Shown one piece after another: positions 1 through 54,200 of a stretch of 64,000 nucleotides of DNA (positions are counted from its first letter, which is position 1; the number at the start of each line of letters is the position of its first letter). The stretch is from NCBI RefSeq assembly GCF_030013205.1, contig NZ_CP122648.1; one strand, given 5' to 3'. The notes below the pieces were generated by a model that was not told the origin of the DNA, made no database searches, and saw nothing but the letters and a program-made list of their open reading frames with translations. The stretch comes from Escherichia coli. GTDB taxonomy: Bacteria > Pseudomonadota > Gammaproteobacteria > Enterobacterales > Enterobacteriaceae. The translations under genes and the position numbers were made by a program.

Positions 1-860
1 ATACCGAACATCAGGATTGCGACCACAATCGTACCGATGATGATCCCCCGATGTACGGCTTTGCTGTCTTTATAAGAGATACAGCGCACCGCAGTATGCG
101 GCAGGCCAATCACGCCAAAACACACCAGCACCCAGAACGACGTCATAAACGCAGGCGACAGAATATCGTCAGCGCCTTGTGGCGTAACCAGTTGCGGATC
201 GATGGTTTGCAGCGTCTCTACCGCATTGCTTAAGCCGCCAGCAGCATGGACCACGCCAATAAGCAGCACAATGGTGCCAATCAGCATCACCAGCCCTTGC
301 ATGGTGTCGTTCAGCACGCTGGCGCGAAAGCCACCAAAGGCGGTGTAGAGCGCAATGCTGATGCCAAAAATCAGCAAACCTGTTTCATAAGGAATACCCG
401 CCGCAGTTTCCAGCAGGCGCGCACCGCCGATAAACTGCACGGTCATCGCACCAACGAACGCAACCAGCAAACTCAAACTCGCCAGCCACACCAGCAGACG
501 ACTCTGGTAGCGGGCAAATAGCATATCGTTCAGCGTCACCGCATTGTAGCGGCGCGCAAGAATCGCGAACTTCTTGCCGAGAATACCGAGCGAAAGCCAG
601 ACCGCAGGAAGCTGAATCATCGCCAGCAATACCCAACCCAGGCCGTATTTATAAGCAGCGCCAGGCCCGCCGATAAACGAACTGGCACTGATATAGGTCG
701 CGGTGAGCGTCATCGCTAGCACAATACCGCCCATAGAGCGGCTACCGAGGAAATACTCATTAAGGAAGGTGCCGGTGCTCCGTTTACGCATCGCATAAAC
801 AGAGATACCGAACACCACCACCAGATAGGCGACCAGCGGTAGAATCACTTCAAGCTGCAT
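1..860 (-). CDS. panF: sodium/pantothenate symporter PanF, N-terminal part (gene continues past window start)
   Basis: Minus-strand reading frame runs off the window edge; translation from the ATG at 860 reads MQLEVILPLVAYLVVVFGISVYAMRKRSTG..., recognised as PanF. The start overlaps the yhdT stop by 11 nt, as recalled for K-12. Confidence 0.9.
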   Translation of the reverse strand, partial: MQLEVILPLVAYLVVVFGISVYAMRKRSTGTFLNEYFLGSRSMGGIVLAMTLTATYISASSFIGGPGAAYKYGLGWVLLAMIQLPAVWLSLGILGKKFAILARRYNAVTLNDMLFARYQSRLLVWLASLSLLVAFVGAMTVQFIGGARLLETAAGIPYETGLLIFGISIALYTAFGGFRASVLNDTMQGLVMLIGTIVLLIGVVHAAGGLSNAVETLQTIDPQLVTPQGADDILSPAFMTSFWVLVCFGVIGLPHTAVRCISYKDSKAVHRGIIIGTIVVAILMFG

Positions 861-1092
861 CGTCATCCTCCAGTGGGATATCGCGATAGATAAATTTCAC
901 CATCGCCCAGCACAGTCCAATAAACAGCAGCGGCGTCAGGATGCAGGCCATCTCAAACCAGCGCGGAAAGCCGGTAAAACCGGGGGCAACGCCAGGTAAG
1001 TAAGCGGCTACTAACCATACCGCCAGATACAAAAGGGTCAGCCCCAGCGCCCAGCGCGCCTCTTTATGGGCCTGAACAAAACGAGTGTCCAC
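850..1092 (-). CDS. yhdT: small inner-membrane protein YhdT (DUF997)
   Basis: The track ORF 850..1110 is trimmed to a GTG at 1092, which sits 9 nt downstream of a perfect AGGAGG (1102-1107, minus strand); this gives 80 aa, the length recalled for K-12 YhdT. Hydrophobic two-helix protein. Confidence 0.8.
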   Translation of the reverse strand: MDTRFVQAHKEARWALGLTLLYLAVWLVAAYLPGVAPGFTGFPRWFEMACILTPLLFIGLCWAMVKFIYRDIPLEDDDAA

Positions 1093-1184
1093 GGAAGGGG
1101 TCCTCCTCATGGGGGGATACGAGAAACGGGCAATTCTACGGCAACTCTTCAGGCAGGGAAAATAATCTGACAGAAAATTGCCGT

Positions 1185-47124: not shown

Positions 47125-48457
<1,333 letters not shown>

Positions 48458-48476
48458 AACTTAGTTCGTTTTAAAG

Positions 48477-48501
48477 ATTCTGCAGACACTGTCTGCAGAA
48501 T
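48477..48501. repeat. 25-bp perfect palindrome ATTCTGCAGACA-c-TGTCTGCAGAAT in the yhcH/yhcG convergent gap
   Basis: Read directly from the sequence; 12-bp arms around a single central base; related to the palindromes at 49266-49327. Confidence 0.8.
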
Positions 48502-48516
48502 TCGAAACCGCTGAAA

Positions 48517-49629
48517 TTAACGGCGTCTATAGCCTTCCTCTAGCACCGCCTGTGTTCGAACGAGTTCATCCGCGAGTCGTTTTTCATCAGGTAGTTGCAT
48601 CTTATATTCGCTCGCCAGAACGGTGTTAGGCAAACCAGCCAGTGCATAATACGCTTCGCCGGCTCCTTTCTCTGCACAGAGAACCAGACCGATGGGCGGA
48701 TTTTCATCCGGTAGTGTCCAGTGCTCTTTGGCGTAGTTGAGATACATATTCATCTGTCCGGCATCGCTATAGCTGAATTTGCCCACTTTTAGATCGACGA
48801 TTAGCAGGCAGCGTAAACGGCGGTGGAAAAACAGCAGATCGACACGAAACCAGTTGTCATCAATGCGTAACCTTCGCTGTCGACCAACAAAGGCAAAATC
48901 ATCCCCAAGTTCCAGCATGAAATCCATCAGGTGGTTGATCAGCGCCTCCTCAAAATCGGATTCTGAGTATTCATCTTTCAATTCCAGAAATTCGAGCACA
49001 AAGGGATCGCGTATCGCCTGCTGCGGAAGAATATGCGTCTCGGTAGGAGCGTGTTGTTGCAGCATGGCTGATTTGTCATGTGACAGTAGTGTCCGCTCAT
49101 AAAACTGGGTCGCAATTTGTCGTTCGAGCTGACGAGCAGACCAGCCACAGCGGAGTGTCTCTTTCTCATAAAAGCTGCGAGCATCAGCTTTTTTAACAGA
49201 AAGCAAACGGACGTAAGTGGACCAGGGCAGGGGGAAGGATTTGGCGAGTTGCGCTAAATGGCAAGATTCTCCAGACACAGTCTGGAGAATTGTGGGGGTG
49301 AATTGTGCAGACAGTGTCTGCACAATTTCAATTCTTTGAAAACAAATATAAAAATTCTTAAACTGCCATAAATTCCTGGTGGAAAATCCACGCTTATACC
49401 TTAGACTTAAATCCTTTGATAGTCGCTTGATTAGCTGCGCACCATACGCAGCCCTGGCCTCGCCACCTTGTTCAAATTCGACAATTCGTCGGCCAATTTC
49501 CCAGTACGTCGCGGTCATTAACGCGTTAACGCTACGTACCGTTTCCGTTCGGGCGCTATCGACCAGATGAATAATGCCGTCGTGGATTTGCTGGTAGCCT
49601 GCTGTGGTTCCTTCTGAGAGCGATTCCAT
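48517..49629 (-). CDS. yhcG: DUF1016 (YhcG-family, predicted PD-(D/E)xK nuclease-fold) protein
   Basis: 370-aa ORF MESLSEGTTAGYQQIHDGIIHLVDSARTETVRSVNALMTATYWEIGRRIVEFEQ...; size and position correspond to YhcG. Confidence 0.85.
   Translation of the reverse strand: MESLSEGTTAGYQQIHDGIIHLVDSARTETVRSVNALMTATYWEIGRRIVEFEQGGEARAAYGAQLIKRLSKDLSLRYKRGFSTRNLWQFKNFYICFQRIEIVQTLSAQFTPTILQTVSGESCHLAQLAKSFPLPWSTYVRLLSVKKADARSFYEKETLRCGWSARQLERQIATQFYERTLLSHDKSAMLQQHAPTETHILPQQAIRDPFVLEFLELKDEYSESDFEEALINHLMDFMLELGDDFAFVGRQRRLRIDDNWFRVDLLFFHRRLRCLLIVDLKVGKFSYSDAGQMNMYLNYAKEHWTLPDENPPIGLVLCAEKGAGEAYYALAGLPNTVLASEYKMQLPDEKRLADELVRTQAVLEEGYRRR
49266..49327. repeat. two further palindromes of the same family inside the 5' third of yhcG
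   Basis: ATTCTCCAGAC-aca-GTCTGGAGAAT (49266-49290) and AATTGTGCAGACA-g-TGTCTGCACAATT (49301-49327); both share the CAGACA..TGTCTG core with 48477-48501. Confidence 0.8.
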
Positions 49630-49812
49630 TATCTGTCCCTTAATATGGCGCAGTGTTGAATAATGGAATCAGCTATACGCCGGGCATCTGCCGGTAACAA
49701 TCCAGATGTGCGTATTACATTGGTTTTCTTCAGATTATGCGAGGCGCTTTCCAGAACGAAAGGAGAATTTCAGCGCCGACTCTTTTCTGAGGAGGCGGCG
49801 CTGGGACAGAGC

Positions 49813-51243
<1,431 letters not shown>

Positions 51244-54200
51244 TTACTGCGCCTGCACGCGCAACTCTGCTGCGCTACGACTACGGTGACCCAGCAGTGC
51301 TTTTACATCACTGGACTTCGGTTTAACCAGCGCAAATTTAGTGGCGAAGGTTGACCAGTTCGCCAGAATCTCTTCACCGCGCTGAGAACCGGTATGCTGA
51401 ACATGCTCGGTGATAAGACCGCGCAGATGCTCTTCATGGATCGCCAGATCGTCAACGCTTAAGACCTCGACCAGTTCCGGGTTAACGCGTTTGCGGAAAT
51501 CGCCGCTTTCATCGAGAACGTAAGCGAAGCCGCCGGTCATGCCCGCGCCGAAGTTAACGCCGGTTTTACCCAGAATACAGACAATACCGCCCGTCATATA
51601 TTCACAGCCGTTGTCGCCAATGCCTTCTACCACGGTGATAGCACCGGAGTTACGCACGCCGAAACGTTCACCCGCGCGGCCTGCGGCATACAGACGACCT
51701 CCGGTCGCGCCATACAGGCAGGTGTTGCCGATAATGCTTGCTTCATGGCTGCGGAAGGCTGAGCCAACCGGAGGACGAATGGCGATTAAGCCGCCCGCCA
51801 TGCCTTTACCGACATAGTCGTTGGCATCACCGGTCAGGTACAGTTCCACGCCGCCCGCGTTCCACACACCGAAGCTCTGGCCTGCGGTGCCGTTGAAGTA
51901 CGCTTTGATCGGATCGGCTGCCAGACCCTGATCGCCGTGCGTCTGGGCGATATAGCCTGAAAGCGACGCGCCGACAGAACGGTCGGTGTTGCGAATATCG
52001 AACCAGAAGGTTTTGCTCTGACGCTCATCGACAAACGGTTTTGCCTGTTGCAGCAACTGTGCGTTCAGCAGGCCGTTATCAAACGGCGGGTTGTTTTCGG
52101 TACAGTAGAGCGCCTTACCTGGATGCGGCTCAGCGGTCTCCAGCAGTTTCGACAGCGCCAGTTTCTGCTGTTTGGCGGTGAAACCGTCCAGCTCTTTCAG
52201 CAGGTCGGTGCGACCAATCAGATCCACCAGACGCGTTACCCCCAGCTGTGCCATCAGCTCGCGGGTTTCACGGGCGATAAACTCAAAGTAATTAGTCACC
52301 TTGAACGGCAGGCCGTGATAGTGATTCTTACGCAGTTTGTCATCCTGAGTTGCTACACCCGTCGCGCAGTTGTTCAGGTGGCAAATACGCAGATATTTAC
52401 AGCCGAGCGCCACCATCGGACCGGTGCCGAAGCCGAAGCTTTCTGCGCCGAGAATCGCCGCTTTGATGATATCGACACCCGTTTTCAGGCCGCCATCGAC
52501 CTGCAAACGAATTTTATGACGTAAACCGTTGGCAACCAGCGCCTGTTGGGTTTCCACCAGGCCGAGTTCCCACGGACAGCCTGCGTATTTCACCGATGAA
52601 AGCGGACTTGCGCCGGTGCCGCCATCATAGCCTGCGATGGTGATTAAATCGGCATAAGCTTTCGCCACGCCAGTCGCGATGGTGCCTACGCCCGGTTCGG
52701 AAACCAGCTTCACGGAGATCATCGCTTTCGGGTTAACCTGCTTGAGGTCGAAAATAAGCTGCGCTAAGTCCTCGATAGAGTAGATATCATGGTGCGGCGG
52801 CGGGGAGATCAGCGTCACTCCGGGCACCGAATAGCGCAGTTTGGCGATGTAAGGCGTGACTTTATCGCCCGGTAACTGACCGCCTTCGCCCGGCTTCGCG
52901 CCCTGGGCGACTTTAATCTGAATGACGTCGGCATTGACCAGATACGCCGGAGTAACCCCAAAGCGACCGGAAGCCACCTGCTTGATGCGCGACACTTTGT
53001 TGGTGCCGTAGCGTGCCGGATCTTCGCCGCCTTCACCGGAGTTAGAGTTGCCGCCGATGCTGTTCATCGCTTCAGCCAGCGCCTCGTGGGCTTCCGGGCT
53101 TAACGCGCCGATAGACATCGCAGCGGTATCGAAGCGTTTAAACAGTTCGCTTGCCGGTTCAACATCAGCAATGTTGACCGCGTTTTCACCCGGCGTAATT
53201 GCCAGCAGATCGCGCAGCGTGGTTGCCGGACGCTCATTAACCAGCTTCGCGTATTCCTGATAGTCGCTGTACTCGCCGCTTTGTACCGCCTGTTGCAGCG
53301 TGCGCACCACGTCCGGGTTGTAGGCGTGGTATTCGCCGCCGTGCACATATTTCAGCAGGCCGCCCTGGCTGATGGGCTTACGCGCCAGCCAGGCACGTTT
53401 CGACAGATTCAGCAGATCCTGCTGGAAGTCTTCAAAGCTTGCCCCGCCAATGCGGCTGACCGCGCCCTGGAAGCACAGGCCCACTACATCATCGTGTAGA
53501 CCGACCGCTTCAAACAGTTTCGAGCAGCGGTAAGAGGCGATGGTGGAGATGCCCATTTTGGACATGATTTTGTACAAGCCTTTGTTGATGCCGTTACGGT
53601 AGTTGAGCATCACGGTACGATAATCTTTGGCAATCGCGTGGGTGTCTACCAGGCGGCCCAGCGTTTCATAGGCAAGGTACGGATAAATAGCCGTCGCACC
53701 GAAGCCCAGCAACACGGCGAAATGGTGCGGATCGCGGGCGCTGGCGGTTTCGACGATGATGTTGGCATCGCAACGCAAGCTTTGATCGACCAGACGGGTC
53801 TGGATCGCGCCAACCGCCATCGGGGCTGGAACCGGCAGGCGATCTTTAGCGATATTCCTGTCGGAGAGCACCAGCAGCACAGTGCCGCTACGTACCATTT
53901 TTTCAGCTTTGTCGCACAGCTCTTTGACCGTCGCTTCGAGCGTGGTTTTGGTGACGTCAAAGGTGATATCCAGTGTATCTGCGCGGTAGTGCTCCTCTTT
54001 CATCGTCGTGAGCTGTTTGAAATCGGAGTAGAGCAGAATCGGCGATTTAAAACTTAAACGGTGCGCCTGGCCCTCTGCTTCACAGAAGACGTTCATTTCA
54101 CGCCCTATGCTGGTGGCGAGCGACATAACATGCGCTTCACGCAGTGGGTCGATTGGCGGGTTGGTGACCTGGGCAAATTGCTGGCGGAAGTAATCGTAAA

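Follow-up and report, generated by a model that had tools for sequence, protein, structure and literature searches.

Three perfect palindromes of 25-27 nt lie at a single locus, in and beside yhcG, in the 64-kb stretch of Escherichia coli DNA that we analysed (the window), and we show here that they are copies of one self-complementary element belonging to the yhcG gene family. Family-wide comparison strongly supports the view that pairing between the arms, and not the encoded peptide, is under constraint. We consider it plausible, if short of probable, that this is a family-wide DNA element that folds as a hairpin or cruciform and is read by the structure-specific nuclease encoded by its own gene. 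The features of the locus are collected in Table 1.

Table 1. Features of the yhcG locus (positions are those of the window).
Feature	Position	Strand	Description
yhcG	48517..49629	-	370-aa ORF, YhcG/DUF1016-family PD-(D/E)xK nuclease
DUF1016_N (PF17761)	49093-49575	-	residues 19-179; Pfam, E 7.6e-43
YhcG_C (PF06250), PD-(D/E)xK domain	48565-49023	-	residues 203-355; Pfam, E 5.2e-56
Interdomain linker	49225..49341	-	hosts the hairpin units; residues ~97-135, between the FYxxF and LPWSxY helices
P1	48477-48501	.	ATTCTGCAGACA-C-TGTCTGCAGAAT, 12+1+12; orphan hairpin unit
P2	49266-49290	-	ATTCTCCAGAC-ACA-GTCTGGAGAAT, 11+3+11; in-gene hairpin unit, 3-nt loop
P3	49301-49327	-	AATTGTGCAGACA-G-TGTCTGCACAATT, 13+1+13; in-gene hairpin unit, 13-bp arms
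Mosaic patch	49240..49400	-	centred on the hairpins; gene nt ~230-390, horizontally exchanged

The original prediction had located three related palindromes here, and a search of the 64-kb window agrees with it: the core pattern CAGACANTGTCTG, with at most one mismatch, has three matches against 0.14 expected, and a 25-nt degenerate pattern with at most three mismatches also has three (0.00 expected), with no further match in the 64 kb besides P1-P3. These were also the only sites found in the window by a covariance model built from homologs (39.8, 35.9 and 41.6 bits for P1, P2 and P3, respectively). When folded as DNA, each forms a hairpin of -10 to -12 kcal/mol with z -5 to -6 (P2, -10.2 kcal/mol and z -5.2; P3, -12.1 kcal/mol and z -5.8). 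P1 and P2 differ, as had been noticed, by a mirrored, compensatory G>C / C>G pair, to which we add one centre-adjacent change, and the match between them is limited to the palindrome and about 4 nt. P2 and P3 are tandem in-gene units that lie 36 nt (12 codons) apart and are translated as ILQTVSGE (yhcG residues ~114-121) and (E)IVQTLSAQ(F) (residues ~101-110), respectively. P3 is the counterpart of the unit present in all homologs, and a Pseudocitrobacter locus (L090) carries a unit identical to it.

P1 lies in the 59-nt convergent spacer between nanQ (yhcH) and yhcG, 16 nt beyond the yhcG stop codon. It is in frame with yhcG, read-through would give the peptide ILQTVSAE, and in one case (P0003) P1 is read through and translated. 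It is Escherichia-specific, being absent 3' of yhcG in Salmonella, Citrobacter, Pseudocitrobacter and Kluyvera, and from strain to strain its arms vary by two mirrored substitutions (CTC/GAG in L005 in place of CTG/CAG). P1 is an orphan copy, like the scars left by DUF1016 gene remodelling. Two other readings of P1 were rejected. A decayed copy of the whole linker is not supported, as the flanks of P1 match the linker no better than shuffled sequence (p ~0.5 and ~0.9). P1 is also not terminator-like because it lacks a T tract: no T run is present in the tail on either strand, and P1 is absent from the terminator scan. The terminator pattern was matched only by P3, on the antisense strand, and this count equals that of shuffles.

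The nuclease-fold assignment made for YhcG from the sequence agrees with its Pfam domains and catalytic residues. E240 and D264 are nearly invariant among 53 diverse sequences, and the 22 enterobacterial sequences compared all share D279 and K281; with both domains and the E...D...(D/E)xK residues present, YhcG belongs to the YhcG/DUF1016 family, its (D/E)xK motif being as described (PMC1189080). Further profile matches are PADLOC PDC-S02 (E 2e-133) and phrog_22762 (E 2.5e-78). The hairpin units lie in the linker that separates the N-terminal helical domain from the remainder of the nuclease and is predicted to be disordered (low pLDDT of 58 and 53 for residues 101-120) and whose length changes among homologs by steps of one unit; the DUF1016_N match spans 161 residues versus 136 model positions. 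The family, with over 24,000 clusters at 50% identity (E up to 0.001), occurs in bacteria, prophages and some archaea and figures among the single-gene candidates for phage defence. In the window, the neighbours of yhcG are nanE, nanK and nanQ on one side and gltD and gltB on the other. Elsewhere hsdR, hsdM and hsdS recur, most loci lying in type I restriction-modification (R-M) operons, in which the gene often lies between hsdM and hsdS and is translationally coupled to both.

The hairpin is found throughout this family. Scoring a hairpin as present when the best 12-pair window contains at least 10 Watson-Crick pairs, we found a linker with 1-4 hairpin units in 83 of the 84 YhcG/DUF1016 loci compared, which span more than 10 phyla and share 54-66% identity with the E. 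coli protein; in an equally long control stretch of the nuclease domain, 4 of the 84 loci reach 10 pairs and none goes above 10. The consensus is ATT-NNN-CAGAC-R-S-Y-GTCTG-NNN-AAT, with a stem of 11-15 bp and a 3-nt loop. Tandem units lie one repeat apart (36 nt in the window, 39 nt in K-12), and many family members carry a single unit only. Across a 74-locus set that covers many phyla, the 180 nt leading up to the W[ST]xY anchor contain 95 hairpins, compared with ~1-3 per 60-nt bin outside this region. Codon phase is equally constant in this set: all 101 windows with at least 10 of 12 pairs are in phase 0 (none in phase 1 or phase 2), and the centre of strong units is always on the first codon base. 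Homologs at ~40% identity and a short-linker prophage branch have hairpins with quite different arms; in the latter, distant branch the hairpin is present in about half of the members and about 40% are without a clear hairpin. No comparable hairpins were found in 412 kb of flanking DNA, and in 466 kb of other loci the covariance model found linkers and three orphans only, with no copies outside YhcG-family genes or relics. In the literature on the yhcG/DUF1016 family and on palindromes and hairpins, no description of the element was found.

Within the stem, 11 of the 12 pairs are altered on both sides. Doubly changed cells number 338 against 103 +/- 13 in shuffles (338 being reached in 0 of 500 shuffles), and the covariation score is 0.54 versus 0.03-0.13 with slid partners. 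Core types swap whole (CAGACA/TGTCTG, GAGACA/TGTCTC, GCGACA/TGTCGC, TCGACA/TGTCGA and CAGATG/CATCTG), and arm sequence varies by lineage, by copy within a gene and by E. coli strain, both arms varying together. The stem-base and loop-proximal bases are conserved and the middle triplet of the arm is free but complementary, which implies intrastrand pairing.

An I-x-Q-T-x-S-x-E peptide does recur throughout the family, but it is hardly credible that this peptide is what is selected and that the symmetry of the DNA is incidental. Residue 2 covaries with residues 7-8 as base pairing dictates (V-AQ, W-AK, P-AE, R-GE), and synonymous positions are fixed, the codons ATT, TCT, NAA and ACR being retained even where the GC3 of the gene is at least 0.6-0.8. 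The ATT/AAT, AGAC and ACR bases are conserved against genomic GC, and more than pairing alone needs. Locus L125 carries a canonical palindrome in a different reading frame, translated as EFARQCLTN; in other branches an entirely different motif (HALRD, YTLC or QQLVAQ) is found with the palindrome still there, in a region predicted to be disordered; and pseudogenes and relics retain the hairpin. The frame-shifted copies and the codon data refute the peptide as the selected feature. Because the arms covary, synonymous positions are fixed and one copy is frame-shifted, the IxQTxSxE repeats are a translated by-product. Altogether, covariation, codon phase and fixed synonymous positions extend to the whole family the earlier suggestion that selection acts on structure rather than on peptide.

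The same suggestion had described the palindromes as invading yhcG, with a miniature inverted-repeat element landed in frame as one explanation. Neither survives comparison with homologs, essentially every one of which has at least one unit at the same position. The view of residues ~100-125 as an insertion holds for one unit only: in-gene units number 1-3 in E. coli alleles and one in Salmonella, Citrobacter and Kluyvera, one unit being ancestral and the extra 12-aa unit lineage-specific. An insertion of MITE or Rickettsia-palindromic-element (RPE) type, in frame in yhcG and beside it, would account for palindromic, in-frame DNA that adds peptide to a tolerant, low-pLDDT region and for one copy outside the ORF. 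It is nevertheless very improbable, and for E. coli it is already refuted by copy number and orthologous position. Among the matches listed (best place per genome), E. coli genomes have a median of 3 places each and a maximum of 6, 13,494 of 13,495 being chromosomal, and the window holds none elsewhere; the median of 3 is consistent with P1 plus the in-gene copies. The units also occupy an orthologous position in the same codon phase across phyla, we found neither non-orthologous polymorphic sites nor target-site duplications, and units of 25-33 nt are far below known MITE or RPE size. RPEs are likewise palindromic DNA translated as extra peptide in a tolerant part of a protein, but they measure ~100-150 bp and are scattered over many unrelated genes of one genus, whereas the yhcG element is confined to one gene family and one orthologous position. 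That the segment is conserved and has no copies elsewhere, which the original prediction had put forward as grounds for its own dismissal, removes the mobile-element reading only and leaves structural selection standing.

REP/RAYT systems (REPINs) also join a nuclease-type gene to short hairpins maintained by pairing, some of them orphan copies. REPs, however, are extragenic, occur as tens to hundreds of dispersed copies and have an HUH/Y1 transposase as partner, whereas a yhcG-family gene carries 1-4 units in frame within its own ORF, a genome has about 3, and the partner is a PD-(D/E)xK nuclease; we found neither dispersed copies nor an HUH/Y1 (IS200-like) transposase. Targeting by insertion sequences was considered and rejected: in strain CREC8 an IS629 lies ~70 nt from the hairpins and is therefore an ordinary insertion.

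Constraint on pairing could also be exerted in RNA. The hairpin may act in the yhcG mRNA, being bound by YhcG or by a host factor, serving in processing or stability, or forming a ToxI-like inhibitory cis RNA, a possibility that we regard as real but doubtful; binding would then control translation of the nuclease domain, and P1 would add a further copy in the 3' UTR. All copies including P1 are on the yhcG transcript and, in line with the RNA structure that had been envisaged, the two in-gene units are predicted to fold as independent hairpins over 111 nt (-35 kcal/mol, z -5.5). A single-gene defence candidate would need control of its toxicity, some fold neighbours of YhcG act on RNA (tRNA-splicing and cap-snatching endonucleases, Can2/Card1), and the translational coupling of the gene to hsdM and hsdS in type I R-M operons could allow an mRNA element to tune expression. 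The stems themselves point the other way, being near-perfect with a 3-nt loop and an R(-1)/Y(+1) constraint that is symmetric on both strands, features more characteristic of palindromic DNA. The stems contain few G-U pairs, and sense-strand mismatches show no excess of G.U over A.C (36 versus 69, counted without phylogeny correction). This count leans away from a sense-strand RNA; much of the A.C excess reflects the choice between Lys (AAA) and Glu (GAA) at codon 8, a coding confound, and RNA and DNA are not told apart by the mismatch spectrum. Rfam 15 gave no match at E up to 1 over 48300-49800 on both strands, and a PDB sequence search gave neither a match nor a solved structure for the element. 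In the curated MG1655 Term-seq table, neither yhcG nor nanQ has a listed 3' end; the only signals there come from Rho-termination regions, one at gene nt 80 and another, antisense, at nt 755, and neither coincides with a hairpin. Against a role in the mRNA, too, many members have a single unit, and relics in decayed ORFs keep the hairpin.

The tandem period of 36 nt in the window and 39 nt in K-12 recalls ToxIN, in which ~36-nt tandem structured repeats also accompany a defence nuclease. ToxI is a non-coding array of tandem 36-nt repeats upstream of the toxin gene that folds into pseudoknots, and ToxN is an endoribonuclease inhibited by ToxI. The yhcG units differ in being coding, simple hairpins that are often single: the repeats are in the ORF instead of in a non-coding upstream array, and the PD-(D/E)xK fold of YhcG differs from that of ToxN/AbiQ.

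Arm covariation can also come from intrastrand template switching without selection. Correction of quasipalindromes by template switching is an established mutational pathway in E. coli, and its hotspots are likewise short palindromes with equalised arms and apparent compensatory changes. The element might then be a neutral, self-perpetuating palindrome, derived from an ancestral quasipalindrome, corrected by template switching and copied by slippage, its covariation being mutational and functionless. Copy number does shift by whole units, orphans and relics are still palindromic without an intact gene, and the linker is variable as well as disordered by prediction. We nonetheless find this reading unlikely: at least one unit in 83 of 84 loci at 54-66% identity is hard to square with the deletion bias of palindromes. 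Conservation of ATT/AAT, AGAC and ACR against genomic GC, the 412 kb of flanking DNA without comparable hairpins and the rare core types shared by the units of one gene also speak against it. Quasipalindrome hotspots are moreover sporadic and not conserved between phyla, whereas the yhcG element keeps one position and fixed flanking and loop-proximal bases.

The hairpin tract is a recombination hotspot, as shown by mosaic alleles, unit gain and loss and a replacement ending at a hairpin edge. Compared with K-12, the window is 64-68% identical in the mosaic patch and 97-100% in the remainder of yhcG; compared with Pseudocitrobacter, it is 93-95% identical at gene nt 202-320 and ~80% elsewhere in the gene. 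In PEC165, the replaced segment stops at the exact hairpin edge (a 101-aa 'transposase' ORF in this allele has no match in Pfam, NCBIfam or PHROG). Orphan scars are found in L012 and L065, the L012 orphan being flanked by a duplicated junction; in L177, relic repeats flank a MazF-like toxin-antitoxin cassette beside a tyrosine integrase; and solitary copies are present in prophage DNA.

Some of these events would fit a site-specific recombination site, like a tyrosine-recombinase core or an attC-like folded single strand, that exchanges the C-terminal half of the gene or neighbouring cassettes, with P1 as the distal boundary. The geometry of two 11-bp inverted arms and a short spacer is like that of lox, dif and attC; the PEC165 edge, the L177 relics and the duplicated junction in L012 are in keeping with it; YhcG co-purifies with PinE and the integrases IntF and IntS (PMC2672614); and DUF1016 genes are enriched beside targets of programmed inversion (PMC9881135). 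We still judge it quite improbable. There is no constant recombinase neighbour, the genes being nan/glt in the window and type I R-M operons at most loci. Of the two ends of the PEC165 replacement, the second does not coincide with P1. The mosaic patch resembles homologous gene conversion and not cassette exchange, and duplex sites bound by a recombinase are not expected to show arm covariation. Integron attC shares with the element a conserved structure with free sequence, fixed stem-base bases, covarying arms and a possible link to cassette boundaries. The yhcG element differs in its short perfect stems, without extrahelical bases, that lie in frame in a conserved gene and not between cassettes, and we found no IntI, attI or Pc and no R''/R' boxes (RYYYAAC/GTTRRRY).

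A DNA hairpin read by the gene's own nuclease is the reading that we put forward. The element would work as DNA, the hairpin or cruciform forming on strand separation or under negative supercoiling; arms of 11-15 bp are short for spontaneous cruciform extrusion, and single-stranded contexts would therefore be needed. Once folded, it would be recognised by the protein of its own gene and may serve as a portable self-recognition site for a potentially toxic defence-island nuclease, for autoregulation or tethering. Since the site is inside a tolerant linker, it would travel with the gene in horizontal transfer. Where the structure is cut or stalls replication, it may become a double-strand-break hotspot, which would explain why sequence is converted, units are gained and lost and segments are replaced at the hairpins.

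We infer by elimination that the reader is the product of the gene itself: hosts range from Proteobacteria to an archaeon, and its own product is therefore the only constant partner. A reader of both structure and sequence would be expected to conserve the stem-base and loop-proximal bases and to leave the middle triplet free as long as it pairs, and this is what the arms show. A palindrome embedded in the gene of a DNA-binding protein has a precedent in parS, which lies within the coding sequence of spo0J/parB, the gene of its own binding protein, and the helical part of YhcG weakly resembles ParB/KorB-type DNA-binding domains. parS is nevertheless conserved in sequence, shows no arm covariation and is bound as duplex by a protein that is not a nuclease, whereas the middle of the yhcG arm is free but complementary; the yhcG element does not match a sequence-conserved duplex palindrome bound by a ParB/Srx-fold protein. 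The catalytic domain of YhcG has its nearest counterparts among nucleases whose substrates are DNA structures or DNA ends (NucS, Cas4, Dna2 and YraN/Holliday-junction-resolvase-like proteins), in line with the resolvase-like assignment of the family by Kosinski et al. 2005 (PMC1189080). Deletion of yhcG is synthetic-lethal with hypomorphic dnaB, dnaN and parE alleles, and besides integrases and PinE the protein co-purifies with HsdMRS and McrABC (PMC2672614); these genetic data, the fold relatives and the co-purification support the proposed reader. The persistence of orphans without an intact gene is explained at least equally well by a palindrome that maintains itself as by a site that a protein reads.

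A more specific and more tentative proposal is that the hairpin is the cognate substrate of the encoded nuclease, YhcG proteins being structure-and-sequence-specific hairpin or cruciform nucleases with their own target in the linker. If so, binding would provide portable self-regulation and occasional cutting would drive homing-like gene conversion and cassette turnover, and the solitary prophage copies would be genuine trans targets. YhcG genes would then form a new class of self-addressed nuclease gene, and this would be the first biochemical activity for the family.

An in-frame hairpin kept by covariation at one spot of one gene across phyla is an unusual constraint. Here a nucleic-acid structure dictates a conserved 'protein motif', a caution against reading such motifs as functional peptides. 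In E. coli, the hairpin accounts for a mosaic, length-variable yhcG locus, and the covariance model (R1) offers a compact signature for family members, relics and possible targets. For the family as a whole, the element suggests a gene that carries a recognition site for its own product.

At the window locus, which is E. coli-like, plus-strand nanE-nanK-nanQ(yhcH) converges on yhcG, followed by gltD and gltB. All three palindromes of the original prediction were confirmed here, each of them perfect, and the mirrored G>C and C>G changes it described between P1 (past the yhcG stop codon) and P2 were also seen. P2 and P3, both within the gene, are spaced by 36 nt, or 12 codons. The three palindromes were the sole matches in 64 kb to a 25-nt degenerate pattern with up to 3 mismatches (shuffles expect 0.00) and alone matched R1, a covariance model built from homologs. 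Each unit folds as DNA at -10 to -12 kcal/mol (z about -5 to -6), and the 33-nt K-12 unit at -15.8 kcal/mol. A 14-nt palindrome in gltB (CCAGACGGGTCTGG, window 53790-53803) has the CAGAC/GTCTG core, with 6-bp arms and no covariance-model match, and is probably a chance occurrence.

Locations of yhcG, its palindromes, copies outside intact linkers and Rho signals
Feature	Position	Strand	Description
yhcG	48517..49629	minus	370 aa
P1	48477-48501		perfect palindrome in 59-nt spacer; orphan copy (E. coli)
P2	49266-49290		perfect palindrome in yhcG; encodes ILQTVSGE
P3	49301-49327		perfect palindrome in yhcG; encodes IVQTLSAQ
Orphan	L065		intergenic; decayed second unit 41 nt on
Orphan	L012		GAGAC-type, between hsdM and a DUF1016 gene with CAGAC-type units; duplicated junction flanks orphan
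Solitary copies	L149 5813; L158 1209; L155 3424; L163 9938; L159, L170, L174		prophage/viral contigs
Rho signal, MG1655 (L179)	NC_000913.3 3367906 (window ~49550)	+	termination region, yhcG nt 80
Rho signal, MG1655 (L179)	NC_000913.3 3368581 (window ~48875)	-	antisense, yhcG nt 755

YhcG comprises DUF1016_N (residues 19-179) and the PD-(D/E)xK domain YhcG_C (203-355), and matches PADLOC PDC-S02, a candidate defence family; sequence search found no solved homologous structure. Because the DUF1016_N match spans 161 residues against 136 model positions, extra residues lie mid-domain, and the hairpin-encoded linker region is predicted to be disordered. Close homologs differ widely in length, including 12-aa steps (358, 370, 382), and in the enterobacterial alignment the linker holds 0-3 copies of a unit I-x-Q-T-x-S-[GA]-[EQK]-F-x-x-x, with three in K-12 (one a perfect 15+3+15 palindrome) and one in O157. 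Residue 2 of the unit covaries with residues 7-8 as the palindrome ATT-NNN-CAG-ACA|NTG-TCT-GNN-NAA-T demands (V(GTG)-AQ, L(CTC)-GE, P(CCG)-AE, R(CGC)-GE, W(TGG)-AK), which was borne out in the DNA of E. coli alleles. Salmonella, Citrobacter, Pseudocitrobacter and Kluyvera likewise carry yhcG after gltBD, with linker units and no copy downstream of the gene, so P1 is peculiar to Escherichia; its arms are CTC/GAG in place of CTG/CAG in strain MSB1_4I, and in P0003, a YhcG protein, the stop codon is read through and P1 is translated as ILQTLSGE. Upstream, gltD directly adjoins yhcG in the window and O157 (window 49630-49812 vs 2706-4224 of L001, the K-12 locus); the 1.5 kb fetched upstream of K-12 yhcG holds yhcF, a yhcE pseudogene and IS5, with gltD farther out, and some 35 nt ahead of the start codon the identity of window and K-12 falls to 54-73%. 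In E. coli CREC8 (L003 5026-8509), an IS629 that itself holds a group II intron (ltrA) interrupts yhcG ~70 nt upstream of the hairpins.

The hairpin extends far beyond the enterobacteria. A profile-free search returned more than 24,000 representatives related to YhcG, whose linkers carry 1-4 repeats with lineage-specific motifs (QTxS, HPLG, DALR, YTVC, QPVA), and two ~40%-identical metagenomic homologs have palindromes at the unchanged position with different arms (GATTCGAGACGC-gct-GCGTCTCGAATC and AATTGTGCACCCA-c-TGGGCGCACAATT). We took 80 loci from species-representative genomes of Beta-, Gamma- and Deltaproteobacteria, Acidobacteria, Cyanobacteria, Planctomycetes, Ignavibacteria, Chloroflexi, Nitrospirae, Verrucomicrobia, Actinomycetes and a Methanoperedens archaeon; the 54-66% identity to E. 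coli YhcG across such distant lineages (L008-L087) implies that the gene has spread extensively by horizontal transfer, together with its hairpin. Within 180 nt upstream of the conserved W[ST]xY helix we counted 95 hairpins, compared with 1-3 for each 60-nt bin in the rest of the 412 kb. The best 12-pair window held at least 10 Watson-Crick pairs in 83/84 loci, vs 4/84 in an equal-size control zone, and strong units were always centred on a codon first base (phase 0, n = 101 windows; phases 1 and 2, n = 0). The core arms covary (CAGACA/TGTCTG, GAGACA/TGTCTC, GCGACA/TGTCGC, TCGACA/TGTCGA, CCGACA/TGTCGG, CAGATG/CATCTG), and 11 of 12 stem pairs vary on both sides among 136 distinct 27-nt units, which were selected for pairing, so that the evidence lies in pair-type diversity, position and phase statistics and not in the percentage paired. 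Doubly changed cells numbered 338 vs 103 +/- 13 after shuffling (0/500 shuffles reached 338), and the covariation score was 0.54 vs 0.03-0.13 with partners slid. In a short-linker branch on prophage contigs, the hairpin lies immediately 5' of LSWSHY and its arms are very different (GTCACGCA/TGCGTGAC, TGGTTCCACA/TGTGGAACCA, AATTGTGCAACAA/TTGTTGCACAAAT); 28/57 loci have a stem of 7 bp or more without interruption, vs 0/57 in the control zone.

Selection on structure rather than on the peptide, as first proposed, is borne out by codons, frame and decay, as well as by the predicted disorder. In genes with GC3 >=0.6-0.8 the hairpin keeps ATT, TCT and NAA, and its Thr codon is ACA or ACG in 74/74 units (99/101 overall). 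The canonical ATTCGCCAGACAgTGTCTGACGAAT is read in a different frame, as EFARQCLTN, in L125 (one of the retrieved loci) and its relatives, a unit in L137 is likewise out of phase, and the palindrome is kept in three pseudogenised loci (L053, L062, L066) and in decayed relics. Altogether, the YhcG gene family very probably carries a hairpin element that is conserved and selected as nucleic acid. Any middle triplet is allowed in the arm as long as the arms are complementary, and it is identical in only 13 of 47 within-gene unit pairs. Such a constraint would not apply between the half-sites of a duplex operator, and intrastrand pairing must therefore take place. Despite GC pressure, the ATT/AAT of the stem base and the loop-proximal AGAC-R-S-Y-GTCT stay conserved, which implies that some factor reads sequence too; that the element is a neutral palindrome that merely corrects itself is improbable.

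Across 466 kb of other loci, R1 found linker sites and three orphans, nothing else. Per E. coli genome, a P1-like 41-mer occurs at 3 places in the median and at no more than 6; of 13,495 places, a single one is not chromosomal. These counts exclude the dispersed miniature inverted-repeat element once considered. In Methylomonas methanica (L012 2337-2480), the junction CATGAGGTGGA.C.ATGA.C (hsdM end and next gene start) is duplicated around a 122-nt insert starting with the orphan unit, which suggests that the hsdM-hsdS slot once held an earlier DUF1016 gene that was then replaced. In viral contigs, scanning for the exact pattern turned up 31 sites: 18 in DUF1016 ORFs, 4 in DUF1016 relics and 9 solitary, most of the latter still perfect palindromes (that in L163 is two tandem units), with no DUF1016 remnant detectable within 600 nt; these could be old scars or genuine trans sites. 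The relics include two 179-nt direct repeats (94% identical) in IMG/VR contig 2534681820_000001 (L177 4686-6186). Decayed DUF1016 linker fragments with two hairpin units apiece, they bracket a MazF-like toxin-antitoxin cassette, whose two genes encode a 176-aa protein of unknown function and a MazF-like protein of 126 aa. A tyrosine integrase follows directly downstream, an arrangement that resembles tandem integration into a DUF1016 remnant; the relic recurs in L152 and L176.

The hairpin tract also marks allelic rearrangement. Identity between the window and K-12 alleles of yhcG is 97-100% over nt -8..200 and 511..1153 and drops to 64-68% over nt 230-390, a tract which includes the hairpins (nt 303-364) and where the window allele matches Pseudocitrobacter at 93-95% (~80% elsewhere). 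In the PEC165 allele, unrelated DNA takes over at the nanQ stop codon and runs precisely to the edge of a hairpin. This mosaicism, unit gain and loss, the O157 deletion and the PEC165 replacement together identify a site of repeated breakage and repair. The PEC165 replacement (L004 3372-3842; window ~48458-49265) puts ~470 nt in place of P1 and the C-terminal two-thirds of yhcG, recurs in at least 6 E. coli genomes and encodes a 101-aa ORF annotated 'transposase' (WP_000639208.1) that matched nothing in Pfam, NCBIfam or PHROG; the truncated N-terminal ORF stops just past hairpin unit 3 (…IWQTLSAK*). A recombinase site is quite improbable, and the element lacks the defining features of attC, as of REP/RAYT, MITE/RPE, intrinsic terminators, ToxIN and parS. 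Rfam holds no family for it, and the literature searched contained no description of palindromes or hairpins in DUF1016/yhcG genes, with a precedent possible in subscription journals.

The gene order seen most often across phyla, hsdR-hsdM-DUF1016-hsdS with stop and start codons that overlap, was counted in at least 10 of 74 loci and agrees with the enrichment of DUF1016 beside type I R-M and inversion targets (PMC9881135); DISARM-like helicases lie nearby in some loci. YhcG co-purified with HsdMRS, McrABC, IntF, IntS and PinE, and its deletion is synthetic-lethal with hypomorphic dnaB, dnaN and parE alleles (Hu et al. 2009, PMC2672614).

An element acting in the mRNA is unlikely, if less so than the neutral and recombinase readings. 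Published MG1655 data have no 3' ends at the hairpins, and the only signals in published Rho-dependence data are the two tabulated; a separate paper describes ncRNA G0-10703 as a yhcG antisense transcript, with a proposed 128-bp overlap with the 5' UTR of the divergent yhcG mRNA. With these Rho-termination regions and this antisense RNA, K-12 yhcG may be mostly silenced at the transcription level. Several features fit DNA better than RNA, short of proof: stems perfect almost to the centre with rare G-U pairs, a preference for purine at -1 and pyrimidine at +1 that holds symmetrically as a rule on both strands, the recombination scars and the replication-linked genetic interactions. Sense-strand G-U pairs number 36 vs 69 A-C, a count confounded by codon choice.

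We tentatively favour a DNA hairpin or cruciform. Its reader would be the gene's own product, the sole constant partner among hosts too diverse for a common specific factor; YhcG is a predicted nuclease related to enzymes acting on DNA structures or DNA ends, and its nuclease domain has been placed near YraN and the archaeal Holliday-junction resolvase (Kosinski et al. 2005, PMC1189080). Breakage at the tract may then be a side effect of YhcG reading the hairpin in its own gene.
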